From the IMG/VR virus record IMGVR_UViG_3300022213_000002: 34,653 nucleotides of DNA. One strand, given 5' to 3'. Below the pieces are notes generated by a model. That model saw nothing but the letters and a program-made list of their open reading frames with translations. It did no database searches and was not told where the DNA came from. Both the position numbers and the translations under genes were made by a program. The first letter of the stretch is position 1; every line of letters begins with the position of its first letter. Shown piece by piece: positions 3,830 to 19,666 of the stretch. This stretch comes from a virus.

Positions 3830-3831
3830 GC

Positions 3832-4728
3832 ATGGATTGGATCTACTTCGGGACGCCGGGCGACCTGTCCAGGCTGGCGCGCCCCCGGGACGGCATTGAC
3901 TCTCCGCGCGACCAGCGCACCAGCGCGGTGACGCTGGCGGGGGGTGGGGCCGTGGTGCACGCGCTTCGGGGCGGCCTGCGCACCTACACGCTCCGGTGGA
4001 GCAGTCTGGAGGACACCCACGGGACCACCCTGGCCGTCCTTGAGGAGTACGCCTATGGGCTACGGGGGTCGGGGCCATTCGCACTCCTGGACCCCGGCAG
4101 GCTGAACCTGTTGACTACCAATCAGTCGTCAGGCACTGGCGCACTGGCCGATACCACGGGATTCACGGCCAGTGCGGGCACCCTGGCCAGCTCGACGGCC
4201 GTGGCCCGACGTGGTACCCGGTCGTTGCTCTGGACGCTGGCGGCCGGCACCACGGCCACGCTGGCGCTCGATGCCGCGGCATCGTGGTGGCCCGGAACCC
4301 CCGCGATGGAGGGGGTGTCCTACGCCCTGTCCCTGCAGGCGCTGGGCGGCGGGACCGACCTGGTCGTCGAGCTGACCGCCCAGCTGCAGTGGCTGGACGC
4401 GGCCGGCGTCACGCTGAGCACGTCCAGCGGCACGCCGGTGTCGACCAGCGGGGACTGGACGGCCGTCTCGGCGGTCGCCGTCGCGCCGGCTGGCGCGGTC
4501 TACCTGCTGCCGCTGCTGGCGGTTACGGGTGCCACGGTGGGCGCCGGTGCCACGGTGGCGCTCGATGAGCTGCAGTTGGAGTCGGGGGGCGTGGCGTCGG
4601 GCTGGCGGCCGGGGACCGGGGTGTACCCCGTGGCCATCGTGGGCGGCATGGACGAGTCGCAGCCCTGGGCCGATCCCGGGTACCGCGAGGGCGTCACGCT
4701 GATCCTTCAGGAGGTGGGGTCGCAGTGA
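3832..4728 (+). CDS. Minor tail protein (distal tail protein-like by position)
   Basis: 298-aa ORF starting 3 nt after the tape measure stop. Confidence 0.75.
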   Translation: MDWIYFGTPGDLSRLARPRDGIDSPRDQRTSAVTLAGGGAVVHALRGGLRTYTLRWSSLEDTHGTTLAVLEEYAYGLRGSGPFALLDPGRLNLLTTNQSSGTGALADTTGFTASAGTLASSTAVARRGTRSLLWTLAAGTTATLALDAAASWWPGTPAMEGVSYALSLQALGGGTDLVVELTAQLQWLDAAGVTLSTSSGTPVSTSGDWTAVSAVAVAPAGAVYLLPLLAVTGATVGAGATVALDELQLESGGVASGWRPGTGVYPVAIVGGMDESQPWADPGYREGVTLILQEVGSQ

Positions 4729-7238
4729 TCGGGGCGACCGACGAGTTCGGCACCGCGCTGGGCGGCGGCGTGGTGCAGTGGGTGAATCCGATCCTGACCG
4801 CGGACTGGGCTAACGATGGCGTCCCGCCCAGCGGCGGCATTGACGACCTCACGCCGTACGTCGCGGAGGCCTGGGAGCTCGCGGTGGGGCTCGACGACGG
4901 CCTGCCGTCCGAGGTCACCGCACCGAACCAGCTCGGCCCCGCCGAGCTGGCCGTAACCCTCGCGGGTGCCCCGGAGTGGGGCACGCCGGCCGGCCGCTAC
5001 TTCGGGGCCGGTTACGCCAGCTCCCCCCTGGCCGGTTACGCGCGGGACGTGGCCCCGGTCGAATTCAGCGCGGGCGTGCGCACCGCGGCGGGGCCGGAAC
5101 GTCTGGCCGTGTTCAGCGGCACGATGGCCGGCGTCGACGGGGTCGACACGGCGACCCTACATGCCGTGTCGACGGCCCGGGGGAAGCTGGCGGCGCCGGT
5201 CGCGGTTCCGGTCGTGGCCGCCAAGTTGCAGGGGTACCTGTATGGCCTATGGGCCACCTGGCCGATCTCGTATCTGCTGCACCAGTGCGGGGTGTACCCG
5301 TCCCCTCCCGCGCGCGCCGGTTGTATCCTGCACATCCCGTTCCATGGCTCGCTGGTGCCATTCGCCCCGGTCCGGTCGACCGCTGGCGGCCAGCCACCTG
5401 CGTGGGTCTACCGGACCCGGGGCAGTGTGCCGAGCTACACGGTGGCGTCGGAACCCCGCTTCGTCCGTGGTCCGTGGGTGTCGGCGGTCAGCCTGCGCTC
5501 GACCACTGACGAACTCCTGCGGCTGTACATGGTGTCGCTGCACAATTCGAGCACGTTGCAGCTCATGAGCCAGTCCGCGTCGGCGGGCCGGGTCGAATTC
5601 TGGGTCAGGGGGGACGTGGTTGACGCGCCGATCTCCAGCGTGGGCGCACTCGACTACGCCGGTGCGTCAACCACGTTCGGGACGGCCCTGACCGAATTCC
5701 GGTACCGGTGCGACAGTACGGCCAGCGCCATCGTCACGGTGACCGCCAACCGCCACATGGAGGTCGTCCTCGATGACGGGGGCGGCCACACGCTCACCGT
5801 GACGTCGACCGACACCATCCCGGAGGACGGGGGCTGGTACTTCGTCGGGGCCGCCTGGTCGTTCTCCGGCAAGAAGGCGTGGGTCCACCTGGACGGGACG
5901 ACGGACAGCGACACGGACGCGTCGCTGTCGACGGCCGTGCTGTCCGCGACGTACGACGATCTGTCGACCACCATGCCGTCGCTCGCGTCCGTGCTCCCCC
6001 TGGCCGATTTCCAGGTGGGGAACACGAATCCCGATACCGATCCGTGGCTGAGTTCGTACGTGTGGGACCGGGGCGCGGACCTGTATCCGTCCACTCTCGA
6101 CTTGGCCCTGCTCAGCGACGTCGACCCGACCGAGGCATGGTCAGCGATCGCGGACTACCAGCAGGCGGAGACGGCATACGCGGGAATCCTCGCGTCGGGC
6201 ATGTACGTGTACCGCCCCCGCGGGTACTACGCCACCCCATCGGCGATGGCCGCGAACGTGGAGATGTCGTCGGAAACGGACATTATCGACATCGTCGGAT
6301 CGGTTGATCCATCGAAGATTCTCAACAGCATCACCGTGCAGTACACATCAAGATCCGTGAGCGTGGTCAGTTCGACCATCGCCGAGTATGCGGAGTCGCT
6401 GACCGTCGCGGGCGGCGCGACGGTCGACCTGGTCGTGTCCGGCAGCGAAAAGATCGTCTTCGCCAACGTCGGCACGGTCGCCAAGGTCGACAACAGCTCG
6501 GCCAGCCAGCCAGCGGCCCCGTACATCACCCTGTGCACCACCAGTGACGGGGCAGGTGCGTACGTCACGGACTCCTCCGTGACGGTGACGGTGACCAGCT
6601 ATTCGACGACGGCGGTGTTCGTCCGCATCGTCAACACCACACTGACCCCGCTCTATCTGACCAACGACAAGGGATGGTCTGCGTTGGCCCTGGCTGGATA
6701 CGCCGCAGTGAGCTCGTCGGCATCGACGACGGTGTCGGACCCGACGTCGGTGGCGGATCGCGGTCTGCGGTCCCTGTCCGTGAGTCTCAACGCGCCACAG
6801 ACCGAGCGGGCGGCCACCATGGCGGCCACGTGGATTCTGGACTTCCTGTGCAGGCCGCGGGTGTCGTTGCCGACCCTGACCGCCACGTGGGACCCCAGGG
6901 TCGAGCCTGGCGACCTGGCGCACATTGTTGACCCCGTGGTGACGGGGGTGGATGGCAACTGGCGCGTGCTCGGGTTACGGGTCACAGCCGATGGCGCACT
7001 GCATACCGTGGCCGTGACCACCGAGCCTCTGATCGGGGAGCTGGGCGTCGTGGTCCCGGATGCCGCCGCGGAGGGGGCGTATCCGGGCGGCGCGATCGTC
7101 GATCAGACCATCGTCGCCGCAGACGAGCAGGTGCTGACTCCCCGCGGCGCCATCGGGAAGGTGGTGCCGGACGGCGTGCCCGAGGGGTCCTACCCGGGCG
7201 GGGCCATTGTCGACTACACGGTTGTCGCGTCGGGTTGA
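4725..7238 (+). CDS. Minor tail protein (large tail-tip / receptor-binding candidate)
   Basis: 837-aa ORF whose GTG overlaps the upstream stop (GTGA). It has S/T-rich beta-type segments and a duplicated C-terminal motif VVPDxxxEGxYPGGAIVDxTxVA. Confidence 0.85.
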   Translation: MIGATDEFGTALGGGVVQWVNPILTADWANDGVPPSGGIDDLTPYVAEAWELAVGLDDGLPSEVTAPNQLGPAELAVTLAGAPEWGTPAGRYFGAGYASSPLAGYARDVAPVEFSAGVRTAAGPERLAVFSGTMAGVDGVDTATLHAVSTARGKLAAPVAVPVVAAKLQGYLYGLWATWPISYLLHQCGVYPSPPARAGCILHIPFHGSLVPFAPVRSTAGGQPPAWVYRTRGSVPSYTVASEPRFVRGPWVSAVSLRSTTDELLRLYMVSLHNSSTLQLMSQSASAGRVEFWVRGDVVDAPISSVGALDYAGASTTFGTALTEFRYRCDSTASAIVTVTANRHMEVVLDDGGGHTLTVTSTDTIPEDGGWYFVGAAWSFSGKKAWVHLDGTTDSDTDASLSTAVLSATYDDLSTTMPSLASVLPLADFQVGNTNPDTDPWLSSYVWDRGADLYPSTLDLALLSDVDPTEAWSAIADYQQAETAYAGILASGMYVYRPRGYYATPSAMAANVEMSSETDIIDIVGSVDPSKILNSITVQYTSRSVSVVSSTIAEYAESLTVAGGATVDLVVSGSEKIVFANVGTVAKVDNSSASQPAAPYITLCTTSDGAGAYVTDSSVTVTVTSYSTTAVFVRIVNTTLTPLYLTNDKGWSALALAGYAAVSSSASTTVSDPTSVADRGLRSLSVSLNAPQTERAATMAATWILDFLCRPRVSLPTLTATWDPRVEPGDLAHIVDPVVTGVDGNWRVLGLRVTADGALHTVAVTTEPLIGELGVVVPDAAAEGAYPGGAIVDQTIVAADEQVLTPRGAIGKVVPDGVPEGSYPGGAIVDYTVVASG

Positions 7239-7256
7239 CGCGGAAAGGATCATGAG

Positions 7257-7808
7257 ATGACCATCGTCGCGCCAGCCGCGGACCAGTACATTCGCGAGTC
7301 GTGGATCGACGCCATCACGGACGCGGTCAATGGCTACGGGGACCTTCAGCCGTACTACATTCCTACGTGGCGATACCGGACCACCGCGCAGACCGTCACC
7401 AACAGCACGACGCTGGTGGACGATGACGCGTTGTTCGTGACTGGCCTGCCGGCCGGAAGCGTATGGGATGTCCAGTGCCTGATTCGTTACCTTGGATACA
7501 CCTCCAACGACTTCAAGATCGGGTGGAGCGCTCCGGCCGGCTCGACCTTCCTATGGGAGATGAGGGGGGCTGAGTCGGGGGCGACGTCCGGGACCGCTCA
7601 GGGGTACTGGGGAGTCAACACGTTGGCGGGCACGGACACAGCCGGGGCCGTCACGGCCAGTGAGCTACACTGCGCTCCGTCCGGCCTGCTCACCGTCGGG
7701 GGCACCGCGGGCACCTTCCAGTTCCGCTTCGCGCAGGGCACGGCCGGGGCCGCCACCGATGCCAAGTGTCAGCCCGGATCGCGGATGCGACTGCTGCGGG
7801 TGGCGTAG
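7257..7808 (+). CDS. Minor tail / hypothetical structural protein
   Basis: 183-aa ORF with RBS AAAGGA, lying between the tail genes and the lysis genes. Confidence 0.7.
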   Translation: MTIVAPAADQYIRESWIDAITDAVNGYGDLQPYYIPTWRYRTTAQTVTNSTTLVDDDALFVTGLPAGSVWDVQCLIRYLGYTSNDFKIGWSAPAGSTFLWEMRGAESGATSGTAQGYWGVNTLAGTDTAGAVTASELHCAPSGLLTVGGTAGTFQFRFAQGTAGAATDAKCQPGSRMRLLRVA

Positions 7809-7856
7809 CGTCACCGGCCGGAGGAAGATTCAGGCGAGGGAATGGAGGGGGAGGCC

Positions 7857-8654
7857 ATGAGCCGCTGGACCGATCTCGCGACCTGGGTCGGGTCGCCCAA
7901 CCATGGCGGGGCCGCCGTCGAGCAGCGTGGCGTGGTGCTACACATCGCTGAGGGCGCCTATGCCGGCACGTTGGCCTGGTGCCAGAACCCGTCAAGTAAG
8001 GTGTCCGCACACTTCATAGCCGCCAAGGACGGCAGGGCTGCCCAGCTGGTCGACACCGACATTGCCGCGTGGACGCAGGTGGCCGGCAACGGTCGATGGC
8101 TATCGATCGAGTTCGAGGGTCACGCCGGCGACTCGCTGACACAACGGCAACTGGAATTCGCAGGCCGCGTGCTTGCCCGCGCGCATCAGCAGTACGGCGT
8201 GCCGTTGCAGCTGGTGGATAGCCCGACGGGCCGGGGTCTGGGCTGGCATGGCATGGGTGGCACGGCCTGGGGTGGTCACACCGGCTGCCCCGGGGCGCCG
8301 ATCGTGGCGCAACGCGGCCAGGTCATCGGCCTGGCCGAACAGATCATCGACGGAGGGACGATCATGCAGCTCACAGGACCGGACCCGTGGGGCGACGGTA
8401 GCCCCAACGAGCAGGCCGCAGAGCTCCGCAACGTCCATGCAGCCATCATGAGTGGCTACCAGGACGACAAGGCCAAGCCGGAGGGCGTCATCGCGCGTCT
8501 CGGGCGGATCGAGAGCGTGCTGACCGCGGCCGGCGGCAGCCCGGACATCGCTCCGGCCATGACGGCCCTGGCCGGACTAGAGTCCGCGCTGAACCGCATC
8601 GAGACCGCGCTGAAGGCGGCCGGCCAGGCGCAGGCGGGTCCCCTGCGGGGCTAG
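7857..8654 (+). CDS. Endolysin, N-acetylmuramoyl-L-alanine amidase (amidase_2/PGRP-like); alternative start at 7842
   Basis: Motifs VVLHIAEG, SAHF, WLSIEFEG and GGHTGCPG are typical of amidase_2 zinc amidases. GGAGG-rich RBS precedes 7857. Confidence 0.85.
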   Translation: MSRWTDLATWVGSPNHGGAAVEQRGVVLHIAEGAYAGTLAWCQNPSSKVSAHFIAAKDGRAAQLVDTDIAAWTQVAGNGRWLSIEFEGHAGDSLTQRQLEFAGRVLARAHQQYGVPLQLVDSPTGRGLGWHGMGGTAWGGHTGCPGAPIVAQRGQVIGLAEQIIDGGTIMQLTGPDPWGDGSPNEQAAELRNVHAAIMSGYQDDKAKPEGVIARLGRIESVLTAAGGSPDIAPAMTALAGLESALNRIETALKAAGQAQAGPLRG

Positions 8655-8708
8655 TGGCGGGCACCCCCCTCTGATCGGCCGTAAGATCGACCACAGGAGG
8701 GTGATCTA

Positions 8709-9056
8709 GTGAAGCACATTTCGGACTGGCTGGTGGCCGCCGCGGTGACCGCCGCCGCGGCGGCACTACTCGGGAGAATGGTCGTCAAGATGATCGTGTG
8801 GGGTAACCGGACGATGAAGCGGCTCAATCTCTTCCTGGGAGAGTGGCTGGGCGACAAGGACAGCGGCCAGCCCGGTTTTCCGGCACGCCTGGCCGCCGTC
8901 GAGCAGGGCGTCTCCAGCGTCGATCGGATCATCAGGGAACAGCTGCTCCACAACGGCGGGAGCAGCCTGGCCGACCAGATGACGCAGGTGCATCGCGCGG
9001 TGGGCGCCGACGCCGGCCCCGTGGTGCGCAACGGGGGCGCGGGAGGGACCACGTAG
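8709..9056 (+). CDS. Holin-like membrane protein (one N-terminal TM helix, C-terminal helical region)
   Basis: GTG start after RBS AGGAGGG. N-terminal hydrophobic segment WLVAAAVTAAAAALLG. It lies directly downstream of the endolysin. Confidence 0.65.
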   Translation: MKHISDWLVAAAVTAAAAALLGRMVVKMIVWGNRTMKRLNLFLGEWLGDKDSGQPGFPARLAAVEQGVSSVDRIIREQLLHNGGSSLADQMTQVHRAVGADAGPVVRNGGAGGTT

Positions 9057-9077
9057 GGAAGGTCCTGTTCGACATCG

Positions 9078-9116
9078 TTGGAGCGCCCCCACCCTGCACG
9101 GGTGGGGGCGCTCCAA
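9078..9116. terminator. Bidirectional intrinsic terminator hairpin (17-bp perfect stem, 5-nt loop)
   Basis: ttggagcgcccccaccc / tgcac / gggtgggggcgctccaa, between convergent genes ending at 9056 (+) and 9134 (-). Confidence 0.85.
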
Positions 9117-9133
9117 CGTGCAGGGCTGTGCGG

Positions 9134-9610
9134 TCATTCCCGGGTGGTGCGGTTGCCCCGGCGGTCACGGCGATCTGCCCCCAGCTCCGAATCCACCCGG
9201 TCCGCCGACCACATTGCAGGCGCGAAGCCCGGATTGGTGGGGAGGAGTGCGCGGCGCCTGGCCCAGGCGGCGGCGGATCCGAGCCTGGACCGCCGCAGCT
9301 CCGGATCGAGAAGCCCGTCCGGCCCGTACAGGAGCCTGGCCAGGACCGGCGTTGAATACTGGTCTGTGCGGGTGACGGTGGTGCTGCCGCCGCGCCAGAG
9401 GTGCTGCCAGGTGCTGGGCTCGCAGACGAGGCCGTAGTCAGCGAGGGTGTTGACGAGGCAGGATGCGGCGTTGCCGCCGGACGCTGCCGAGGTGCTGATG
9501 AGGTCCAGGCCGAGGTTGACGCGGGCCCGCTGCGTGTCGAGCTCCCGGAGCGTGTAGCCGTTGGGGTCCCATCCGGCGAGGGCGGAGCGGACCCGGTCGG
9601 TGATGTTCAT
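9134..9610 (-). CDS. Hypothetical protein, 158 aa (second gene of the insulated cassette)
   Basis: ATG at 9610 overlaps the upstream stop (ATGA). The R/P-rich N-terminal extension in the track (to 9889) overlaps the upstream gene in another frame and was rejected. No motif recognised. Confidence 0.7.
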   Translation of the reverse strand: MNITDRVRSALAGWDPNGYTLRELDTQRARVNLGLDLISTSAASGGNAASCLVNTLADYGLVCEPSTWQHLWRGGSTTVTRTDQYSTPVLARLLYGPDGLLDPELRRSRLGSAAAWARRRALLPTNPGFAPAMWSADRVDSELGADRRDRRGNRTTRE

Positions 9611-9885
9611 GCCGCGAGCCCGGCGGCGCATTCGATGACCTGCGAGGTGAGCTGCTCCGGCGTGATGTCGTAGAGGGCGTCGTCGTCGACGGTCAGGCCG
9701 AGGGCCGCGGCGATGGCGGCCATGGCCTTGTCGACCACGTCGAGCTGCTCGCTGGTGGGCTCGCCGTGGAGGATGGCCCGGTCGCCGGTGATTTCTGCGC
9801 GGAGGGCGCCGCTGATGGTAACGAATCCGCTGGTCCAGTCGGGGTTGGCTGGGAGGCTGGCGATGGCCTGGGCTGCTGTTGTCAT
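9607..9885 (-). CDS. Hypothetical acidic protein, 92 aa (first gene of the insulated cassette, apparently leaderless)
   Basis: ATG at 9885 lies 6 nt downstream of a -10-like hexamer. High GC3. No motif recognised. Confidence 0.7.
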   Translation of the reverse strand: MTTAAQAIASLPANPDWTSGFVTISGALRAEITGDRAILHGEPTSEQLDVVDKAMAAIAAALGLTVDDDALYDITPEQLTSQVIECAAGLAA

Positions 9886-9891
9886 GCATCT

Positions 9892-9921
9892 ATAATGCGT
9901 GAGGGTCACGCAGTATGTCAA
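9892..9921 (-). promoter_or_regulatory. Sigma-70/SigA-type promoter: -35 TTGACA (9921-9916), 18-nt spacer, -10 CATTAT (9897-9892)
   Basis: Read on the minus strand. The predicted transcription start coincides with the A of the ATG at 9885, giving a leaderless mRNA. Confidence 0.6.
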
Positions 9922-10011
9922 GGTGGGCACCACTTCCGGGTCGGCCAGGTCTACGGACGGGCGACCCGCAGAGCGCGGGCCTGGCCGATCTGCGCGGAGC
10001 GCAGTAGACTA

Positions 10012-10031
10012 CAGTCGACATCAGTCGACAT
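10012..10031. promoter_or_regulatory. Tandem 10-bp repeat CAGTCGACAT x2 (each contains the palindrome GTCGAC); operator-like
   Basis: Two exact adjacent copies one helical turn apart, 17 nt upstream of the GTG at 10049. Confidence 0.5.
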
Positions 10032-10048
10032 CAACCAGGGAGGGCACC

Positions 10049-10258
10049 GTGGGCCAGCACTCAGGCGGCGGCACAGCGGATCACGGCAAGGTCGATCGGC
10101 AGTACAGCGGCAAGCACCGGCACGGACAGGCCGCGGGCACGCGGGCGCAGCGTGACGCGGAGGCCCGTGACGCCGATTCGGCGTCACGGGGCGGGTACGC
10201 GCTCGGCAATCGGCCCGATCGCCCGCACTCGCCCAACGGGTGGGATTCGGGCCGATAG
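10049..10258 (+). CDS. Hypothetical small basic protein, low complexity and likely disordered, 69 aa
   Basis: GTG start 5 nt after RBS AGGGAGGG. GC3 about 80 percent. G/R/H/D/Q-rich. Opposite in orientation to the surrounding arm. Confidence 0.6.
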   Translation: MGQHSGGGTADHGKVDRQYSGKHRHGQAAGTRAQRDAEARDADSASRGGYALGNRPDRPHSPNGWDSGR

Positions 10259-10283
10259 GCCGGCCGGGCACACTGACACGACA

Positions 10284-10315
10284 GAGCCCCCCATTCGACA
10301 TCGGGTGGGGGGCTC
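10284..10315. terminator. Bidirectional terminator hairpin (10-bp stem gagcccccca/tggggggctc, 12-nt loop)
   Basis: Lies between convergent genes ending at 10258 (+) and 10343 (-). Confidence 0.7.
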
Positions 10316-10342
10316 CGTCGTGAGCAACCAGGTGGCGCCAGC

Positions 10343-10945
10343 CTACCAGCGGTGCGGCAGGCCGGACGTGTTCTGGCCGTGGTGATACCAGTTCCAGGTC
10401 CGAGCGGGCAGGTGGGAGATCCTCGCGCCCGCGGCCAGGCAGCGCTGCGTGAAATCCCAATCCTCGCCGGCGTAGAGCCGATCTGGCGAGGTGAGCGTCT
10501 CCGGCGCAACGGTACGGAACCCAACCGCCTGCGCCAGCTCGGTGCGGACCAGCACGGTGATGGTGGTCTGCACGGGATGCTCGGGATCCCACGGCTGGCC
10601 GAACACCTCCGGCCGCGGATCGGTCCCGCCGATCACGTGATACCACGGGTAGACGTAGTCCGCTCCCGTGGTTTCCGCATGGACCAGGCACATGTCCAGG
10701 TGTCCGGGCAGGAACTCGTCATCATCGTCAAGGAACGCCGTCCACTCCGTCTGGGCCCCGTCCAGCGCAGCCTGCCTGGTCGCCGCAGCACCTCGCCGCT
10801 CCGCGTCGAGCGAGAGGGACGACATAACCGGCACGGTGTCCGCGACCGTTTGCGACATCACGGACCGTACAGCCCGGTTGAGCAGCATGGAGCGCGGAGG
10901 GATGGTGGGGATGCAGACGGTGATCCCTGGCCGAAGTCCCGTCAT
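10343..10945 (-). CDS. Glycosyltransferase, family 2-like (GT-A fold)
   Basis: N-terminal ITVCIPTIP motif and acidic DxD-type motif FLDDDDEF. ATGA overlap with the upstream gene. Confidence 0.8.
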   Translation of the reverse strand: MTGLRPGITVCIPTIPPRSMLLNRAVRSVMSQTVADTVPVMSSLSLDAERRGAAATRQAALDGAQTEWTAFLDDDDEFLPGHLDMCLVHAETTGADYVYPWYHVIGGTDPRPEVFGQPWDPEHPVQTTITVLVRTELAQAVGFRTVAPETLTSPDRLYAGEDWDFTQRCLAAGARISHLPARTWNWYHHGQNTSGLPHRW

Positions 10946-11697
10946 GACTGCTCCCCCTCCTGCTCCTTGCGCATGCGCTCAACTTCGGCCAGCTCGGCCA
11001 GGCCCCGCTCCCCGGCCGGCACGCGTGCCAGCACGCGCCGCACCGCGTAGTAGTGCGGGTCGGTAACGCTCATGAGCTTGCCGCAGTCCGGGCATGCACC
11101 GTATTGCCTACCGGTGGACGCGGCGTGGTCGCACAGGCACACGCGGTGCGCGTTCTGGATCATGCTGCATCCGTGGTGGTACAGACCGGGCTCACCCCGC
11201 CACCAGCGCTCCCGGGGGGCGTCCCATTGGTGCGAAACGTTGACCGGGTCGCCCTTACGGTGCCGGCCACCGCACCAGGAGCAGCGGGTGAGCAGCGTGC
11301 GGCGTAAGGACTGGAGCGGCCCGACCTGAATCCGCCAGTGGTGGACGTGCCACTGCCAACCATGCAGGACCCTGGTCCGGTAGGTGCCATCAGGCTGCGG
11401 TACTCGGACGTAGTGCCTGCAGACGTCGCCGGAGTCGCGGCCGCCCGGCTCGCGGTGCCAGACCGTGATCATGCTCGGCCAGTAGTAACCGCGACCGGCC
11501 AGCGTCCAGAACGGCGTCCACGACCGCGGGCGCCACCAGGGGAACGGGTTGGCGCCGTGGTCACGATCGCAGTCCGGTACGCAGTCGTGGTGCAATCGGA
11601 ACCGCCACCGCGCCCGCCCCGGCTTGGCGTCATGCATCCTACTGCGCTGCGGCCAAGGGCGCCGGATCTCAAACGCCACCACCAGGGGGTCATGCAC
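10942..11697 (-). CDS. Hypothetical Trp/His/Cys-rich protein, 251 aa
   Basis: Translationally coupled at both ends inside the glycosyltransferase operon. Cys clusters CSWCGG and CPDCGK. No family recognised. Confidence 0.75.
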   Translation of the reverse strand: MHDPLVVAFEIRRPWPQRSRMHDAKPGRARWRFRLHHDCVPDCDRDHGANPFPWWRPRSWTPFWTLAGRGYYWPSMITVWHREPGGRDSGDVCRHYVRVPQPDGTYRTRVLHGWQWHVHHWRIQVGPLQSLRRTLLTRCSWCGGRHRKGDPVNVSHQWDAPRERWWRGEPGLYHHGCSMIQNAHRVCLCDHAASTGRQYGACPDCGKLMSVTDPHYYAVRRVLARVPAGERGLAELAEVERMRKEQEGEQS

Positions 11698-12358
11698 GGC
11701 TGTTGATCCTCTCAGCTAGAACGACCTGGAACACCATGTCGGTGCCCGGTGCCTTGACGGTCCTGTGGACCAGGGGGTCCCACCCGGACCAGTGCAGCAG
11801 CGCGCGGTACGCGCCAATGGACCAGGCCCAGGCGTGGCAGGCGTCCGCCGTCCGGATCGTCTCGCTGGCCGGCGAGGAGCACACCAGATATCGAGCCCGA
11901 GGGCGTTGCGCCAGCCGGTGCAGCACCTCGCCAGGCTCGGCCAGGTGTTCCAGCACCTCCGTCATGACGTAGATCTCCGCGTCCGGCAACGTGCTGCCAT
12001 GGATGCTGCACCGGCCACTGAGGAGCATTTCGACAAAATCGCCCGCGATCGCGGGTACTCTGCGCTCCCGCCATCCCTCGCGGTTGCTCGGCTGGAAATC
12101 GATTCCGATGATCGACACCCGCCCATCCCGCAGCAGCTGCAGGAGTCCGCCGTCACCGCATCCGAGGTCAACCAGCAGCGGCGCGTAGTCGGACGGCGCG
12201 TCCTCACGGAGGTACCCGACCGCAAGACGGACCATGTCGCGTGCGGCGTACAGGCGTGGCCGATGCGCGTCCTGCTCAAGGTGCGGGGCCCGTTCGCGGC
12301 CGGCGTGAAACTCGCGGGTCGAGACGTGCTCGCGACCGGGCACGCGGTACTCATCCAC
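11690..12358 (-). CDS. Class I SAM-dependent methyltransferase
   Basis: Motif I LLVDLGCGDGG, followed by an acidic residue after a beta strand (IIGIDF). GTG start overlaps the upstream stop. Confidence 0.8.
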   Translation of the reverse strand: MDEYRVPGREHVSTREFHAGRERAPHLEQDAHRPRLYAARDMVRLAVGYLREDAPSDYAPLLVDLGCGDGGLLQLLRDGRVSIIGIDFQPSNREGWRERRVPAIAGDFVEMLLSGRCSIHGSTLPDAEIYVMTEVLEHLAEPGEVLHRLAQRPRARYLVCSSPASETIRTADACHAWAWSIGAYRALLHWSGWDPLVHRTVKAPGTDMVFQVVLAERINSRA

Positions 12359-13106
12359 CAGACATCACACCCTTGATGATCTCGACGTCGGTCCTGAGCT
12401 GCCCGGCCTCGTACGCGTGCCAGGCGTGCTGGTCCCGGCCCGACAGTGCGTCCACACGGTCGTAGCCGGCGTCCCGCGGCGCCTTACCCACCAGCGGGTG
12501 CATGTGCTCAACGAGCACCTCCGGCAGGTAGGTCAGGCAGTCCGCCTGCTGCCCCCACGCAAGCCAGGCGTTGTCCACGTACAGGTGCTGGAGCACGGGC
12601 GGGGCCATGCACCCGAGCGCACGCACCAGGGACGACCGGATCACAACCTGCGTCGGGAGCGCGGCCCCGTGTACCCCGTCGTTCCCGTAGGCGATGGCGC
12701 GGCCCGGCTGCGTCACAGCGTCCAGCAGCTGCCGGTCCCATCCGGCGGTCCGGGGCCGGTGGTCGTCGCCCATGAACATCAGGGCCTCCGGGGCCCACGG
12801 GGTCGCGCCGGTCGTCAGGTATCGCGCCATGGCGTTGAGCGGATCGACCATGCCTGGCCGGCCGTCCGGAGGCGCGACATGTAGCCCGACCCACCAGCAC
12901 TCCGCGACCACATCGTGATACTGATGCGCGTCCGGGTCGTTGGCGTCGAGCACGAGCACCAGCCTGGTACTCGACATCCCGCGGGTGAGCGCCATCTTTC
13001 TGACCAGCTGCCGCACACTGTCCGGCCGGCCACGGGTCGGCACGATGACGCACAGGCCGCCACGTTCCCCTGTCAGATCCATGCTTCCCTCCATGTCCCC
13101 CTCCAT
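12351..13106 (-). CDS. Glycosyltransferase (GT-A-like); start uncertain among three close ATGs
   Basis: CVIVPTRGRP motif near the N-terminus and LVLDANDPD acidic motif. Repeated GGAGGG-ATG units at the 5' end. Confidence 0.75.
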   Translation of the reverse strand: MEGDMEGSMDLTGERGGLCVIVPTRGRPDSVRQLVRKMALTRGMSSTRLVLVLDANDPDAHQYHDVVAECWWVGLHVAPPDGRPGMVDPLNAMARYLTTGATPWAPEALMFMGDDHRPRTAGWDRQLLDAVTQPGRAIAYGNDGVHGAALPTQVVIRSSLVRALGCMAPPVLQHLYVDNAWLAWGQQADCLTYLPEVLVEHMHPLVGKAPRDAGYDRVDALSGRDQHAWHAYEAGQLRTDVEIIKGVMSGG

Positions 13107-13134
13107 CCCTATCTAATGATGAGTTGTGTCCACA

Positions 13135-14205
13135 CTACAGCCTGGCGTCACGGATGGCCATGGCCCGGCGGTACGCCCGCTCCCACGCGAACCAGTGATC
13201 CCCGACGAGGCACCCACGCGCCCACGCAAGCCCCCGAATGCGGAGGGATGTGAAGTCGTTGCCGGAGTACGCCAACTCGATCCTCGACCGCACGGCCACC
13301 CTCCAGCCGAGGGGCGATCCGGCCCCGGGGATGCGCATCCCCGGGGCCGGACTGGTCTCGTACGGCCCGACGCCGGAGGCGATCCACGGGATACCGAGTG
13401 CCGCATACTCAAGGATCTTGATGTCGGACTTGCTCCGATTGAACGCATTGTCGACTAGGGGCGCCAACCCGATGGTGAAATCGATGCGCCGAAGATGCGC
13501 CGCGGTGGTGTGCAGCCAGCCGGATTCTCGCAGGCCGGGGACCTTGTGACCGGCCAGCACGCTGCGTGCCCCCTGGCCGATCAGGTGGAGCCCGGCCGCA
13601 CCCCGCCGCATCGCGTGCGCGACCCCTGCCGCGGCGCCACTGCCGCGCCAGTCCGCCAGGTGGGTCGGGCTGCCGGCCCACCCGACGATCGGAACGTCGA
13701 GCACGGGCTGGGCGAGGCGGGCGTCCCCGATGTCCACCAGCCAGGATGGCACGCAGTTGGGTAGCACCACCACATTCGGGTTGTACCGACGCGCGACTTC
13801 GGCCAGGGGGTACGTGGACACGGTGACCAGGTCTGCAGCAGCCAGATTGCGCTCGAAGTTGGCGCGCTGCGCCCGGAACTCGCCGTACGCGGGGTTGTCC
13901 GGCGGCACGCTGAACGGATCGTCGTCGATTTCGTACACCAGGGCCGGCCTCATTGGCCCCGGTCGCGCGGCCAGGGAGGACCAGAGGGCGGACGGCCCCG
14001 GCAGGTGGACCCTCTGGCCGATCAGCACGTCCGGCCTGTCTGGCGCGGCCTGGCCCCACCGCTGATCGGCCAGGTTGGTCCCCATGGTGATCGTGTGGCC
14101 GTGCTGCCGTAGTTGCTGCAGCGGGAGGGCGATGCGGTACCACCCGCACCCCTGTTCATCCGCCATCCACCCTGTGATCCTCATGGGTCGCTGGAACACG
14201 CTCAT
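13135..14205 (-). CDS. Glycosyltransferase (GT-B-like, family 1/4-type architecture)
   Basis: 356-aa ORF from the ATG at 14205 after RBS GAAGGTGGA. Two Rossmann-like halves, with a VGWAGSPTH motif in the C-terminal half. Confidence 0.7.
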   Translation of the reverse strand: MSVFQRPMRITGWMADEQGCGWYRIALPLQQLRQHGHTITMGTNLADQRWGQAAPDRPDVLIGQRVHLPGPSALWSSLAARPGPMRPALVYEIDDDPFSVPPDNPAYGEFRAQRANFERNLAAADLVTVSTYPLAEVARRYNPNVVVLPNCVPSWLVDIGDARLAQPVLDVPIVGWAGSPTHLADWRGSGAAAGVAHAMRRGAAGLHLIGQGARSVLAGHKVPGLRESGWLHTTAAHLRRIDFTIGLAPLVDNAFNRSKSDIKILEYAALGIPWIASGVGPYETSPAPGMRIPGAGSPLGWRVAVRSRIELAYSGNDFTSLRIRGLAWARGCLVGDHWFAWERAYRRAMAIRDARL

Positions 14206-14224
14206 TGATCCACCTTCAGATGGG

Positions 14225-14266
14225 GCGACGCGCCCCACGGTGAGGTCAGACCATGGGGCGCGTCGC
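14225..14266 (-). promoter_or_regulatory. 13-bp-stem hairpin between the DPF-motif gene and the glycosyltransferase operon (attenuator, terminator or processing site)
   Basis: gcgacgcgcccca ... tggggcgcgtcgc are perfect complements with a 16-nt loop, just upstream of the RBS for 14205. Confidence 0.5.
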
Positions 14267-14296
14267 TGATGCCGTTCGCGTAGGGGACGGATCAGG

Positions 14297-14875
14297 TCAC
14301 GCGAACGGGTCCTTGGCGGCCAGGAAGTGCTGCCAGTAGGTGCGGGCGATCGCCTTCTCCTCCGGCGTACTCACGGCCAGGAAGTACGGCGGGTTCTTCT
14401 GCGGATCCGCAGCCTGGCCGATGGACAGTCGCCCAACCACCATCGAGCCGGCGGTCTGGCCGGCGGCGCGCCGCTTGAGCGCCTCGCGGCACTGGTTGAC
14501 GACGCCGACCGCGGACAGGTACATGGCGTCGATCCGGTAGGGGATCTGGCTGACCTGCGTGTGGGGGATGGCGGGGCGCTTGTTGGGCGCGCCGCCCCAA
14601 TGCAGCGGACCACCATCGAGAACCACAACATCGGCCGTCATGCGATCGACCATCTCTCCCGGCCGCTGGTACGCCGGAACGGTCTCGATCCTGCTCGGGA
14701 TGATGAGCAGCAGGCGGCCGGCGTCGCTCACGCCGTCCGCCCGGTCGTACAGGTCGCCCATCCGGGGGCGGTTCGACTTGGGCGCCGGATCGCTGAACGG
14801 GTCATCTCCGCTGGGCGCCGCAAATGGATCACTGGCCGGGCTGGCCTGCGTCCGTGCTGCAAACGGGTCGGTCAT
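14297..14875 (-). CDS. Hypothetical protein with three N-terminal DPF motifs and a C-terminal DPFA
   Basis: 192-aa ORF with RBS AGGAG 7 nt before the ATG. Begins MTDPFA..SDPFA..DDPFS and ends KDPFA. Confidence 0.8.
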   Translation of the reverse strand: MTDPFAARTQASPASDPFAAPSGDDPFSDPAPKSNRPRMGDLYDRADGVSDAGRLLLIIPSRIETVPAYQRPGEMVDRMTADVVVLDGGPLHWGGAPNKRPAIPHTQVSQIPYRIDAMYLSAVGVVNQCREALKRRAAGQTAGSMVVGRLSIGQAADPQKNPPYFLAVSTPEEKAIARTYWQHFLAAKDPFA

Positions 14876-14886
14876 CGAGTGCTCCT

Positions 14887-14913
14887 GTCGAGTACGAGTG
14901 TCGAGTGTCGAGT
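14887..14913 (-). promoter_or_regulatory. Clustered heptamer repeats ACTCGAC (minus-strand sense) abutting the RBS of the 14875 gene
   Basis: gtcgagt occurs 3 times, plus one acgagt variant, within 27 bp immediately upstream of AGGAG. Confidence 0.45.
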
Positions 14914-14928
14914 AGGTGGGGCCGGGTG

Positions 14929-14983
14929 GGGTGGGGCATTCAGCAACCTAGGGCGACCAACCGGCCATCGCCATGCCCCACCC
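14929..14983 (-). ncRNA. Long hairpin (11-bp stem GGGTGGGGCAT/ATGCCCCACCC enclosing a 5-bp nested stem)
   Basis: Perfect complementary arms at 14929-14939 and 14973-14983. Nested GGCGA/TCGCC stem inside the loop. Confidence 0.5.
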
Positions 14984-15084
14984 TCTTGCCTGCCGTGCGA
15001 CCCGCGCCTCCGGCCGCGCGAACCGGAGACTTGCACCTGTGATCTTGCCTGGTAGTCACGGCCGGTACCCCGCCGCTCTATCCG

Positions 15085-15184
15085 TGCCCCGGTCGGGATT
15101 TGAACCCGAATCCTGCTGTCATTGTTCACCGCATGACGAGCGGTGGTTGCGCAACGCCACTCTTCCCATTTGAGCTACCGGGGC
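15085..15184 (-). tRNA. tRNA-like module S1 (100 nt), non-canonical: normal acceptor, D and T arms but an oversized central region
   Basis: Acceptor GCCCCGG/CCGGGGC, U8, D arm GCTC-AAATGGGAA-GAGT, T arm TCGGG-TTCAAAT-CCCGA, discriminator A. There are 49 nt between the D and T arms instead of about 23. Best central stem-loop is CACCGC-TCGTCAT-GCGGTG. Confidence 0.5.
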
Positions 15185-15187
15185 TCC

Positions 15188-15263
15188 TGGTGACGATACC
15201 GGCCAGCCAATTGCGGGTCGCCAGCGCCGATGCCGTCCCGCGGGACGGCCGGCCGGTATCGCC
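15188..15263 (-). ncRNA. Structured module S3 (76 nt, ends ACCA): 13-bp terminal helix plus an internal 7-bp/4-nt-loop hairpin
   Basis: GGCGATACCGGCC pairs with GGCCGGTATCGTC (one G-U pair). Internal hairpin GCCGTCC-CGCG-GGACGGC. It abuts S2 (0 nt gap) and S1 (3 nt gap). No T arm. Confidence 0.4.
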
Positions 15264-15356
15264 GTGGGCGGGCGGGAATCGAACCCGCGTCGGGCGGGTA
15301 GCGTTCGCCCGATCCCCCCAGGGAGCCGCTCTAGCCAGTTGTGCAACTGGCCCCAC
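15264..15356 (-). ncRNA. tRNA-like module S2: perfect T arm plus two long hairpins, no canonical cloverleaf
   Basis: T arm GCGGG-TTCGATT-CCCGC followed by CCGCCCA-C. Hairpins TCGGGCG-AACGCTACC-CGCCCGA (15290-15312) and GCCAGTT-GCAC-AACTGGC (15334-15351). Confidence 0.4.
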
Positions 15357-15388
15357 CCCACTCCCGCGCCGCGAACCGCCGGAGTGGA

Positions 15389-15413
15389 ACACCGCGAACG
15401 CTACCCGCGGTGT
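15389..15413 (-). terminator. 8-bp-stem hairpin just after the exonuclease stop; its 9-nt loop is complementary to the loop at 15297-15305
   Basis: ACACCGCG-GGTAGCGTT-CGCGGTGT (minus-strand sense), starting 9 nt after the TGA at 15425-15423. Confidence 0.5.
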
Positions 15414-15422
15414 CCAGTCATG

Positions 15423-17066
15423 TCAACTCGCCGCGGGGGCGGGCACGAATCCGCGCGCGCGATGCGCTTCCGCGTACGCCTGCAACTCGACTGACCAGGC
15501 GCCGCGCGCCGCCGCGTCGTGCCAGATCCGCGACAGGTCCGCCCGCTCGCGTGCGGTGTCGATGCGCCCGCGCCAGTCATCGGGCGCGGGCTCGGGCTCG
15601 GGCGCGGGCTCGGGCGCGGGCTCGGGCGCGGGCGGGGGGGCGGGTACCCGCGTCGCCCGCCTGCCCGTGGGCGCATCGGGCGCGGGCGCATCGCACGTGG
15701 GACAGATGCCCGCGCTCGCGGGCATGCCCGCTCCGCACCAGATGCACTGCCCGCTACCCGCCTGCGCGGGCATGGGGGCGAGCGCGGCGTTGAGTCCGCA
15801 CTCCGGGCACAGGGTGCCGGCTGCCCCGACCCCCGGCCGCACCCCGCACTGCGGGCACTGCGCGCTCGCCTGTCCTGTCTGCGCGGGCACTGCGGCGGGC
15901 ACTGCGGCGGGTACCCGCTCGTCGCCCGCGCACGCGGGACAGCGACCGGTGCCGTTCATGTCGCCCGGATTGGTCAGTTCGCCGCACCCCGTGCACCGCT
16001 TGCGCTTGCGCGCGCGCGGCGGGCGGGTGTCCATCGGCGCGGGCACGGGCGTGAGTATCGGATCGATCGCGCGCCTAAGGGGGAGTGCCTCCGCGATGAA
16101 TGCCTGCGCGGCCGCCTCAATGTCAGGGGGGACCGTGGACGCTGAGACCGGTGCGGCTCCGGCTGTGTCCGCCCCAGCCGGTTCCGGCCGGAGCGGCGCG
16201 CCGATCAGGCCCGCCTTGCGCATGTTGCGCACCTCGACCGCCCGCACAGCCGCCATCCGACCGGCCCTGATGTCGACCGGGTAGAGCGCGAAGTTCTGCG
16301 GCTCGCCCGCCGGCGCGTGCAGGACGTAGGCAACGTCAGAGCGGGTTGGCGCCGCCTCGATGTACTCGTCGCCTACCCACCAGTGTCGCATCATCTGGTA
16401 GATGGCAAGCTGGACCGACACGTAGAGACCCATGTATCGCAGGTTCTTGCCGGTCTTGATGTCGATGATGGCGCGACTGGCGTCACCACCGAGCGTCCCC
16501 ACGCGGTCGACGGTGCCCGCAGTGCCGCCACGGGGGTTGGCTGCGGTCAGATCGGCATCGAGCGTGGGCACGACACCGATGCGCTCGATACCGCCCGGTT
16601 CGAAACCGATCCGGTGTTCGGCCAGCAGTGCCCGGTACCGGTCCAGGTCGGGCTGGAAGCGCGGCGGGCACGCGACATCGGCTGCAGCCTCGCCCTGCTG
16701 GTCGTTGATCTGGTAGAGCTTGTGCATCGCGGTGCCCAGGTCGCGCCGCTCGTTGGCGCCGGCCGCGTGCTGCGCCGCGGCCACGATCTCGTTGAAGCGA
16801 TCCTTGTCGGTGGCGTAGTCCGTGGTGGACGCGGACAGGTACAGGCTGGGCGTGAGCGCGATGCCCCGGACTGCCATGGCCGCCTGCCACGCGGACAGGG
16901 AGTAGGTGTCGTCGAGCGTCTTGGCCAGGGTCGTCGCCCTGGTCCAGGAGACCAGCCGGCCGGTCTCCGGGTGCGGCAGGAGGTAGCGTCCCCACCGGTC
17001 GCGCTGGATCTTGCCCTCGGCGCCCTCAAGTGGCGCCCCGGGGTCGCCGAGTGGATCAAATGTCAT
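15423..17066 (-). CDS. PD-(D/E)XK (RecB/Cas4-like) exonuclease fused to three zinc ribbons, a PAPE linker and a small C-terminal domain
   Basis: Nuclease motif AIIDIKTGK with an upstream GTVDRVG. Three CxxC...CxxC pairs (CTGCG..CPAC, CPQCG..CPECG, CIWCG..CPTC). PAPEPAPEPAPEPEPAP linker. Confidence 0.8.
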   Translation of the reverse strand: MTFDPLGDPGAPLEGAEGKIQRDRWGRYLLPHPETGRLVSWTRATTLAKTLDDTYSLSAWQAAMAVRGIALTPSLYLSASTTDYATDKDRFNEIVAAAQHAAGANERRDLGTAMHKLYQINDQQGEAAADVACPPRFQPDLDRYRALLAEHRIGFEPGGIERIGVVPTLDADLTAANPRGGTAGTVDRVGTLGGDASRAIIDIKTGKNLRYMGLYVSVQLAIYQMMRHWWVGDEYIEAAPTRSDVAYVLHAPAGEPQNFALYPVDIRAGRMAAVRAVEVRNMRKAGLIGAPLRPEPAGADTAGAAPVSASTVPPDIEAAAQAFIAEALPLRRAIDPILTPVPAPMDTRPPRARKRKRCTGCGELTNPGDMNGTGRCPACAGDERVPAAVPAAVPAQTGQASAQCPQCGVRPGVGAAGTLCPECGLNAALAPMPAQAGSGQCIWCGAGMPASAGICPTCDAPAPDAPTGRRATRVPAPPPAPEPAPEPAPEPEPAPDDWRGRIDTARERADLSRIWHDAAARGAWSVELQAYAEAHRARGFVPAPAAS

Positions 17067-17857: not shown

Positions 17858-17987
17858 TGCCACGGGGACAGGCAAGCTGATCGCAGGGGAGGTCGTCCGC
17901 CAGGAAGTGCAGTCCGATGGCGCAGGGCCACCGCGGCTGGACGAATCGCCACCTGAGTCCAGCCGCGGTGCGTCGAATCTTGATCAC
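17817..17987 (-). CDS. Micro-ORF, 56 aa with four Cys (possible small zinc-binding protein)
   Basis: GTG overlaps the helicase stop (GTGA) and its TGA overlaps the next ATG (ATGA). Sequence [56 protein letters not shown]. Confidence 0.5.
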
Positions 17988-19666
17988 CTGGCGCTCCCGC
18001 GGTCGAGGAGACGACTGGCGTCGTGGATGGAGATCTCGTTGGACAGCTCGCCCTTACTGAGACCGTCCGGGGTGATGCCGAGGCGGAGCGCGTGGGCCAG
18101 CTGGGCGTCCGACGGAGCACGGCGCCCCTGGCGCCAGCTGGCCGTCCGACGCGCTGTGGTGCCCGCGGGGTCGAGATCGTCTGCGAGATCCTCAGCGAGG
18201 CTCATCGCCAGCTCGATGGGGAGGTTCCGGTGGTGCCACTCGCCGCGCCCCACCGAATAGACCCCACACGACCCAACCCGCCAGGCGCCCGCCTGGCCGT
18301 CCGGTCCGAATTCGGGCCACACGAAGATGGTGCGTCCCTCCGGGCGTCCCGCCACCTGAATGAACCAGTGCCCGGCACGGGTCTGCAGCCAAGCAGAGTG
18401 GCTCTGCTCAAACAGGTCGACAGCAGCCATGCTCTTGAGGCGGCCACCCATGACAGCGTCGCTCGGCCCGGTGTCGCCGATGCCGTTGCCGTCACCGAGC
18501 TCCTCCAGCTCGGCGCGCTCGATAGCCTCGACGAGAGTCTCGTCGTCGGTGATGGTGATGGGCGTGGTCGACAGGTCGGCCAAGGTGGCCAGTTTGAGCC
18601 GGCCGGCGATACCGGCGAAGTCGAGTGCCAGGGCGTTCTCCTTGCCCGCCCATGGGCGCAGGACACGTCCCACCATCTGGATGAACAGCGCCTTGGAGGT
18701 GGTCGCGCGCGCGATAGCCGCAACCTCCGCCCATGGCGCATCGAACCCCTCGGTGAGCACCATACAGTTGACCAGCACCCGGGACGCGCCGGTGCGGAAG
18801 CGCTCATAGGCTGCCTGGCGCTCGTCGGTCGGGGTGTCACCCACGATGACGTCACAGGCGATGCCGGCGGCACGCAGATCGATGGCGAACCGCTCGGCGG
18901 TTTCGACGGTGGGCGTGAACAGGATGGTGCGTCGGATCAGCCCGTCCGGCCCCATGGCCTGGTCGTGCAGCGCCTTGGCGATGGCCGCGCCGGCGTCGAC
19001 GGCCAGCAGGGCCTGCGACAGTGACCCCTCCCGGTACTCGCCCCCGGAGGTCTTGACCTTGTCCAGATCGAATCCCTCGATCTGGACCGTCCTGGCCTTG
19101 ACGTCGCACAGGTACCCGTGCCGGATGCCGAACCTGATGTCGCGGGCGTAGACGATGTCTTCCCAGACGTCGCCGAGCCCCCGCCGGTCCTCACGGCTCA
19201 TCGTCGCGGTGAATCCGACCGCCCGGACGCCGGAGCCGGACTCGAACGCGCCGAAGTACTCCAGCGTGTCCAGGTAGCTGTCCGCCGCCGCGTGATGGCA
19301 TTCATCGACGACGATACGTGTGAATCCGCGGGGGTCGACCCGCCTGCGCCTGCTCTCCCGGGCCAGGGTCTGCACGCTGGCAACCACCGCGTCCGCGTCG
19401 CCGTGCTCGTCGCGCTCCGCCTTGACCAGGCCGGTGCTCATGTCCGGGGCGATGGCCCGGAGCTTGGCCAGGGCCTGCTGCGCCAGCTCGTCGCGGTGAA
19501 CCAGGATGAGCGAGCGACCACTGACGGCACGCTCGCGCTTCGCGGCGGTCGCGAAGATGACGGTCTTTCCGAGGCCGGTGGGCAGCAGGATGGCGGGCCG
19601 CTGCAACGGACTCTCGTTGATCGCAACGATGGCCTGCTCCTGATAGGGGCGCAGCTTCAGGCTCAT
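17984..19666 (-). CDS. Superfamily 2 DEAD/DEAH-box DNA helicase
   Basis: Motif I LLPTGLGKT, motif II VVDECHH, and conserved helicase C-terminal motifs (VNCMVLTEGFDAP, QMVGRVLR). Confidence 0.9.
   Translation of the reverse strand: MSLKLRPYQEQAIVAINESPLQRPAILLPTGLGKTVIFATAAKRERAVSGRSLILVHRDELAQQALAKLRAIAPDMSTGLVKAERDEHGDADAVVASVQTLARESRRRRVDPRGFTRIVVDECHHAAADSYLDTLEYFGAFESGSGVRAVGFTATMSREDRRGLGDVWEDIVYARDIRFGIRHGYLCDVKARTVQIEGFDLDKVKTSGGEYREGSLSQALLAVDAGAAIAKALHDQAMGPDGLIRRTILFTPTVETAERFAIDLRAAGIACDVIVGDTPTDERQAAYERFRTGASRVLVNCMVLTEGFDAPWAEVAAIARATTSKALFIQMVGRVLRPWAGKENALALDFAGIAGRLKLATLADLSTTPITITDDETLVEAIERAELEELGDGNGIGDTGPSDAVMGGRLKSMAAVDLFEQSHSAWLQTRAGHWFIQVAGRPEGRTIFVWPEFGPDGQAGAWRVGSCGVYSVGRGEWHHRNLPIELAMSLAEDLADDLDPAGTTARRTASWRQGRRAPSDAQLAHALRLGITPDGLSKGELSNEISIHDASRLLDRGSAR

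Follow-up and report, generated by a model that had tools for sequence, protein, structure and literature searches.

The window analysed here is IMG/VR record IMGVR_UViG_3300022213_000002, a contig of 34,653 nt (34.65 kb) from an uncultured soil actinophage, and our subject is a block of five minus-strand genes at positions 10343–14205, or 11% of the contig. These genes encode three glycosyltransferases (GTs), an S-adenosylmethionine (SAM)-dependent methyltransferase (MT) and a basic protein rich in tryptophan, histidine and cysteine (the W/H/C protein). The five genes, their order, their motifs and their overlaps had been described in an earlier note on this DNA, and all were borne out when the sequence was read directly. 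A megablast search against 50,697 phage records returned no close DNA relatives of the block.

The open reading frames (ORFs) lie on the minus strand at 13135–14238, 12351–13106, 11690–12358, 10942–11697 and 10343–10945 and encode, in order of transcription, a GT-B fold GT, a GT-A fold GT, the MT, the W/H/C protein and a GT2-family GT. G+C content at third codon positions (GC3) is 0.82–0.87 in each ORF and the neighbouring genes are alike in this respect. For the first gene the earlier note had chosen ATG 14205, and this is the most likely start, preceded as it is by the ribosome-binding site GAAGGTGGA. A gap of 28–40 nt separates this gene from the second, which probably begins at ATG 13094, behind GGAGGGGG. 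From here the remaining genes (GT-A, MT, W/H/C and GT2) are chained by short overlaps of 8, 8 and 4 nt, as had been claimed and as could be read directly. The GT-A/MT junction GTGGATGA is an 8-nt overlap, with an alternative GTG at 12343 that would give a 7-nt gap instead; the MT/W/H/C junction GTGCATGA is also an 8-nt overlap; and the W/H/C and GT2 genes share an ATGA (4-nt overlap) behind GGAGGGGGAG. The W/H/C start (GTG 11697, 251 amino acids) is fixed because its N-terminus MHDPLVVAFEIRRPWP (MHDP..VAFEI.RPWP) is conserved family-wide, and for this reason a 231-amino-acid database copy of the protein, which starts at Met21 (20 codons later), was probably mis-called.

Beyond the last gene, 28 nt after the GT2 stop, a G+C-rich 10-bp hairpin was read directly at 10284–10315 on the minus strand (GAGCCCCCCA, 12-nt loop, TGGGGGGCTC). 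A scan with the terminator consensus did not call this hairpin, which has no T tract; it is likely to mark the end of the transcription unit, where it may serve as a terminator. A second, 9-bp G+C hairpin lies at the other end of the block (14229–14262, minus strand; CGCGCCCCA, 16-nt loop, TGGGGCGCG), in the 91-nt gap between the gene at 14297–14875 and the GT-B start, and the longest GT-B ORF opens with a GTG (14238) that falls inside it. This hairpin could be an attenuator or processing site between the replication genes and the cassette.

The prediction of three GTs and one SAM-dependent MT held for every enzyme, each of which passed profile or fold tests. The GT-B protein (13135–14205, minus strand; 356 amino acids from ATG 14205) is a GT4-like GT of the retaining type. 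It matched phrog_7162 at 1e-47 and Pfam Glyco_trans_1_4 at 16.3 bits, under the cut-off of 27, and a family profile (A2) built from ten family members matched the GT4 enzymes MshA (8.5e-8), TreT, GlgM, PimA, BshA and PglA-type enzymes. Family invariants are D94–D96, E266 and an FN..K motif, and this protein is likely to have the initiating or a core role in the cassette.

The GT-A protein (12351–13106, minus strand; 247–251 amino acids) is a GT2-like GT that matched phrog_14945 at 5e-38. The window protein itself had no Pfam hit, and four of 14 relatives matched PF00535 weakly. Its AlphaFold2 model was of high quality (pLDDT 91.1, pTM 0.89), and Foldseek against the PDB gave a probability of 1.0 to WrtF, AvpGT, SpsA, TarP, TarS and RmlT, with 319 hits at E ≤ 1e-3 to GT2-type GT-A structures. 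P23, R27, P28, D54 and D114–D115 are invariant in the family, the last pair within a GDDH sequence that is a DxD-type motif. The second enzyme of this fold, at the end of the block (10343–10945, minus strand; 200 amino acids), belongs to the GT2 family and is of the inverting type; it matched PF00535 with 36.9 bits (cut-off 23.3) and phrog_14775 at 1e-49, and the DDDDE sequence noted earlier is present as its DxD motif at residues 73–77. Among solved structures it is closest to the PglI-type enzyme 9jma (8.5e-6), and it shares 51% identity with Zukovirus gp107 and 42% with Arthrobacter phage Atuin gp169.

The MT (11690–12358, minus strand; 222 amino acids, or 217 from GTG 12343) is a class I SAM-dependent enzyme of the O-/small-molecule type. 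It matched PF13489 (Methyltransf_23) at 34.7 bits (cut-off 27) as well as PF08242 and PF08241, its Pfam matches were confined to Methyltransf_23/12/11/25, and no family of DNA C5 or N6/N4 methylases was hit in the same scan. Motif I is the expected VDLGCGDGG, and the closest solved relatives are the O-methyltransferase UbiG (4e-4) and the 2'-O-methyltransferase Hen1. Homologues of the MT follow the GT-A gene in four other loci of our comparison (L054, L103, L110 and L128). No transmembrane segment was predicted in any of the five proteins.

The cassette is not unique to this phage and is not a new kind of system. All three GT families co-occur in Streptomyces Zukoviruses and in four Arthrobacter phages of about 194 kb, and in part in Actinoplanes phage phiAsp2. 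In KimJongPhill, one genome end carries gp109 (GT), gp108 (MT) and gp107 (GT2) and the other carries UDP-glucose dehydrogenase, an MT and the GT-B homologue gp6, adjoining TerS; in Atuin the cassette families are gp165, gp169 and gp170; and in phiAsp2 the genes pas33, pas34 (GT-A fused to an O-MT) and pas35 come directly after the tail genes. In IMG/VR, the GT-B family was found in at least 499 stretches, and in the best 80 of these GT-B loci the GT2 gene was present in 30, GT-A/MT in 18 and UDP-glucose dehydrogenase in 16. Contigs with TerL, portal, capsid and tail tube proteins 30–48% identical to those of the window phage carry the cassette, and there it usually abuts the terminase gene or diverges from it. 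Linkage with the head and tail module in these relatives therefore marks the cassette as an old companion of this structural module. The window phage differs in two respects, namely the relocation of its cassette to the end of the replication arm and the lack of a sugar-nucleotide gene of its own.

Two further contigs, L054 and L072 (IMG/VR 3300046829_000092 and 3300046517_001709; positions 2101–16287), carry GT-B, GT-A, MT, W/H/C and GT2 genes in the same order on one strand, spread over 14 kb with other genes interspersed. This arrangement suggests that gene order along the entire arm is old, rather than that the genes form a compact operon.

The earlier note had read the locus as one for assembly of a methylated oligosaccharide. 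As regards the glycan this is fair, because the four enzymes (three real GTs and an O-type MT) are soluble and co-transcribed; methylation of the sugar itself is a further step that we infer. The four enzymes would make up a soluble, cytoplasmic glycan-building set, in which the GT4-like GT-B enzyme would put the first sugar on the acceptor, the GT-A and GT2 enzymes would lengthen the glycan and the O-type SAM methyltransferase would cap it. We propose this order, from GT-B through the GT-A fold enzymes to the MT, by analogy with the glycosylation of serine-rich-repeat adhesins, a bacterial cytoplasmic protein O-glycosylation in which a GT4-type enzyme initiates. The donors would probably be host nucleotide sugars, as the phage has no nucleotide-sugar enzyme of its own.

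What this glycan is attached to is the central question, and we consider glycosylation of the phage's own virion proteins to be the best reading of the cassette, one that we hold with about even confidence and that is based on analogy and gene neighbourhood. The acceptor would be one or more virion proteins and the product a methylated O-glycan coat. This target is favoured because there is an actinophage precedent, because the cassette is linked to the head and tail module in relatives and because the phage has no recognisable lysogeny genes. To our knowledge, self-glycosylation has been shown for a few mycobacteriophages only. As recounted in two later articles, phage-encoded tandem GTs and an O-methyltransferase glycosylate the capsid and tail tube of Che8 and Corndog, the Corndog set consisting of an O-methyltransferase and three tandem GTs (Freeman 2023 via PMC11600133, PMC13313380).

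Several observations weigh against a virion target. In the comparison with known actinophage glycosylation loci that had been suggested, similarity to Che8 gp108–110 was not detected by BLASTP (best E values of 0.30, 0.09 and 0.33), and tblastn of the three window GTs gave no match to a Mycobacterium phage. The proven acceptors end in serine (GS or DS), with C-termini of ...KTGS and ...SDGS for the Che8 capsid and tail-tube proteins and ...LVGS and ...KGDS for those of Corndog. The window capsid (...EYTG) and tail tube (...VWQAV) lack this residue, and the equivalent proteins of cassette-bearing relatives end in ...EVLA and ...DEAD. The window cassette also lies in the replication-gene arm, away from the structural genes, and the sequence reveals no particular acceptor site; the capsid and tail proteins have modest serine/threonine patches only, the richest being in the minor tail proteins. 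The capsid stretch SATATATPTGNP was considered as a serine/threonine acceptor signature and set aside, being partly conserved in relatives and looking like part of the fold. If virion proteins are the target, the acceptor site probably differs from the mycobacteriophage one because the enzymes are unrelated.

Alternatively, the substrate of the cassette might be a glycopolymer of the host envelope or a lipid-linked precursor on the cytoplasmic side of the membrane, the modification of which would alter receptors or the cell wall during infection. Prophage-encoded TarP and Gtr enzymes are host-glycan modifiers, and the window enzymes have matches in this direction: for the GT-A protein, the top structural neighbours number among them TarS, RmlT and the prophage-encoded TarP, all wall-teichoic-acid enzymes, the GT-B profile matches PimA and PglA-type enzymes that use lipid-linked acceptors, and the GT2 protein is closest to a PglI-type enzyme. 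We nevertheless regard a host envelope target as decidedly unlikely, since no integrase or repressor was matched among ORFs of more than 250 amino acids, which leaves no basis for lysogenic conversion; the block encodes no flippase, polymerase, membrane protein or transmembrane segment; and related phages carry the cassette in company with the head and tail module.

It is less probable still, and in our judgement very unlikely, that the cassette has a small molecule or cytoplasmic polysaccharide as its substrate, such as a host anti-phage metabolite or a polymethylated storage-type glycan. All of the enzymes are soluble, the GT4 relatives MshA, TreT and GlgM act on small acceptors and the MT resembles UbiG-type small-molecule O-methyltransferases, all of which fit such a target; however, it would leave the conservation beside the structural module unexplained and we know of no phage precedent for it.

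Glycosylation of the phage DNA as a hypermodified base that evades restriction, already thought less likely in the earlier note, is extremely improbable, because the known routes need a hydroxyl handle supplied by a thymidylate-synthase homologue or TET/JBP (PMC13326640) and the enzymes for it are absent: no thymidylate-synthase homologue (ThyA-like), TET, deoxynucleoside triphosphate (dNTP)-pool enzyme or DNA polymerase was found encoded by the phage. The PDB matches of profile A2 listed at E ≤ 1 were GT4-type with neither T4 alpha- nor beta-glucosyltransferase among them, and the MT is of the O-/small-molecule type. What speaks for it is that the block shares the leftward arm with helicase and exonuclease genes, that one GT-A family member gave a non-significant E value of 0.23 to a TET-associated glycosyltransferase, and that the GT-A protein matches phrog_2675, a family named 'DNA methyltransferase'; that label traces to phiAsp2 Pas34, noted as an O-methyltransferase. 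The same label, in phrog_2675 and in RefSeq, covers phiAsp2 pas34 (L009, 5992–7782); it is explained by Pas34 being a fusion of a GT-A domain with an O-methyltransferase, and it can mislead annotation of related phage genes, the depositor's own note reading O-methyltransferase.

The fourth gene of the block encodes the W/H/C protein (10942–11697, minus strand; 251 amino acids), which is putatively zinc-binding. It contains 6.0% tryptophan, 7.2% histidine, 4.0% cysteine and 13.9% arginine by comparison with 2.0, 1.6, 0.7 and 7.3% in eleven other window proteins, and has a pI of 9.7; by GC and GC3 its gene is not set apart as foreign. The protein matched no Pfam, PHROG or NCBIfam entry, and neither the single sequence nor the family profile matched a PDB sequence. 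One search found 719 homologues and a second one 450 clusters (50% identity); all are unnamed, and their sources are soil viromes and the genomes of Micromonospora, Streptomyces, Actinomadura and other actinobacteria. The conserved core spans about 105 residues, with some members of only 113 amino acids and others bearing a helical insert of about 100; no Pfam domain was found fused to it in ten longer or rearranged members. Seventeen residues are invariant (W80, H81, E83, P84, C93, W114, H117, H120, C139, W141, C142, H174, C177, C187, C189, C202 and C205) and include both CxxC pairs reported earlier (C139xxC142 and C202xxC205), and from their sequence pattern the invariant cysteines and histidines suggest two or three zinc sites. 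The model is a confident predicted fold (pLDDT 84.6) and had no Foldseek hit below E 0.1 in PDB or BFVD.

Known metal-dependent folds were considered for this protein. An HNH or beta-beta-alpha-metal nuclease gave no profile hit, the best nuclease-like fold being T4 EndoVII at E 6.8, and the histidine that follows the CxxC (H156) is not conserved. A deaminase (HxE...CxxC) was also discarded, because no fold hit supported it, the motifs are wrongly spaced and the HxE is placed at the end of a strand, not at the beginning of a helix. The spacing of H81-x-E83...H117/H120 is compatible with the triad of a 2-oxoglutarate (2OG)-Fe(II) dioxygenase of the TET-JBP kind, with no profile hit and no cupin or double-stranded beta-helix (DSBH) among the Foldseek hits.

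The claim that the W/H/C protein is the novel element of the glycosylation system did not stand, as it belongs to a widespread actinophage family that occurs mostly without GTs. This family is a large orphan one, the protein is not peculiar to this system, and its gene is most likely a mosaic passenger in a variable slot between the MT and GT2 genes. A GT homologue lay within 10 kb in 12 of 83 family loci, leaving about 85% of sampled loci without one, and the gene was present in only two of 80 GT-B loci. The cassettes closest to that of the window (L103, L128 and L164) have an NAD-dependent epimerase/dehydratase in the slot between MT and GT2. All 17 cultured carriers of the W/H/C gene (Arthrobacter and Gordonia phages) lack homologues of the window GT-B and GT2; in cultured Arthrobacter phages the gene sits beside RusA and MazG with no GT, and in Sakai no annotated GT lies within 5 kb of it. 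Across 73 metagenomic loci its neighbours were highly variable, its usual position being after replication or methylase genes, and in at least 19 of the 73 TerS, TerL or portal lay within 5 kb downstream. Most simply, the gene would be a mosaic insertion encoding a putative zinc protein that is unrelated to the cassette and probably binds nucleic acid. Two large genes beside family members contain LAGLIDADG-type domains (L032, 6425–9169; L027, 6060–8459) that are probably inteins or homing endonucleases, the gene hosting the domain in L027 being an N6/N4 DNA methylase.

Not everything fits a passenger. In the 12 of 83 loci with a neighbouring GT gene, the family member lies beside it or within 6 kb; in the window, L006 and L043, whose arrangements are unrelated, the W/H/C gene directly adjoins sugar genes; the GT-neighbour state needs eight changes on the family tree, at least four of them forced by well-supported branches; and GT co-occurrence is above a crude expectation, an enrichment that is only roughly judged. 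A shared preference of W/H/C and GT genes for the pre-terminase region may explain this co-occurrence. Given these observations we weighed whether the protein could instead be a working part of the cassette, acting as a zinc-dependent sugar-tailoring enzyme that replaces the epimerase, as an acceptor-presenting adaptor or as a cassette regulator. In the window its gene is translationally coupled on both sides, it occupies the slot of the epimerase/dehydratase, the W/H/C-GT2 pair is retained in a sister contig, and the invariant H81-x-E83 with H117/H120 could form a putative catalytic metal site. We consider a working part unlikely, in view of the scarcity of GTs around the family and of the family around GT-B genes set out above, the absence of the gene from the Zukovirus cassette, a basic composition (pI 9.7, 14% arginine) that is a better fit to nucleic-acid binding than to sugar chemistry, and the lack of a fold match to any sugar enzyme. 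More speculative, and in our estimate improbable, is the proposal that the family is a new zinc- or metal-dependent fold that works with phage glycosylation cassettes, as an epimerase stand-in or GT-targeting factor; if true, this would explain why it has come to adjoin sugar genes at least four separate times.

The remainder of the window is that of a phage genome in permuted order. The terminase (26994–28553, plus strand) is followed by the portal, and the capsid (32329–33291) and tail tube (448–1020) genes are also on the plus strand, the latter followed by the tape measure and the minor tail genes (3832–7238); a lysin (7842–8654, plus strand) is accompanied by a holin-like gene. A long leftward arm on the minus strand contains the helicase (17984–19666), a PD-(D/E)XK exonuclease (15423–17066) and the five-gene block, and the G+C-rich hairpin at the end of this arm adjoins the lysis genes. 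Directly upstream of the large terminase gene, 26091–26978 (plus strand) encodes a GDSL/SGNH-type hydrolase of 295 amino acids (PF13472, 39.3 bits), which could be an esterase for acylated wall or glycan material. The sister contig (L173), from another sample, is 96.6–98.1% identical to the window, and within these matching flanks a stretch of about 0.8 kb just downstream of the cassette is completely different (L173 1700–2378 versus window 9076–9958).

The cassette of GT4-like, GT-A and GT2 enzymes with an MT is unrelated to the proven mycobacteriophage enzymes and is widespread, in IMG/VR and in cultured Streptomyces and Arthrobacter phages. If it does coat virions, shielding by glycans would be common among actinophages and would have arisen convergently, and the cultured carriers make virion glycosylation directly testable. 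The W/H/C family is of interest in its own right as a large, conserved phage family with neither annotation nor structural neighbour, usually placed between the replication and packaging modules; once its role is found, hundreds of genes in phages and prophages could be annotated.

By comparison with known systems, the true homologues are the annotated but uncharacterised cassettes of KimJongPhill (gp4–6 and gp107–110), Atuin, Mimi and Racecar (gp165 and gp169–171) and phiAsp2 (pas33–35). In the Zukoviruses, Arthrobacter phages and phiAsp2 the proteins are 30–38% (GT-B), 35–37% (GT-A) and 42–51% (GT2) identical to those of the window. The Zukovirus order GT-MT-GT2 is also the window order, except that MT and GT2 are adjacent there, with no W/H/C gene between them, and the Zukovirus methyltransferases have no detectable similarity to the window MT. 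All of these cassettes differ from that of the window in having sugar-nucleotide genes of their own (UDP-glucose dehydrogenase, nucleotidyltransferase) and no W/H/C gene. Staphylococcus aureus TarP resembles the window GT-A protein in fold, as does TarS, and TarP and the window enzyme are both phage-borne GT2 enzymes; TarP, however, modifies wall teichoic acid and does so from a lysogen, whereas no integrase is recognisable in the window phage, whose cassette consists of four enzymes.

Chlorovirus PBCV-1 encodes A064R, a capsid glycan enzyme with two glycosyltransferase domains and a methyltransferase domain. As a eukaryotic giant virus with N-linked glycans PBCV-1 is unlike the window phage and no homology is expected, but it too relies on virus-encoded cytoplasmic GTs and an MT, which place a methylated glycan on its own capsid without host secretory machinery. 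Che8 and Corndog differ from the window lineage in that their virion glycan is demonstrated, that of the window lineage being predicted. In their organisation they are alike, each being an actinophage that encodes tandem soluble GTs together with an O-methyltransferase function; Che8 gp108–110 lie in a non-structural arm as does the window cassette, and the protein sizes are similar, at 391, 232 and 211 amino acids in Che8 and 356, 251 and 200 in the window.

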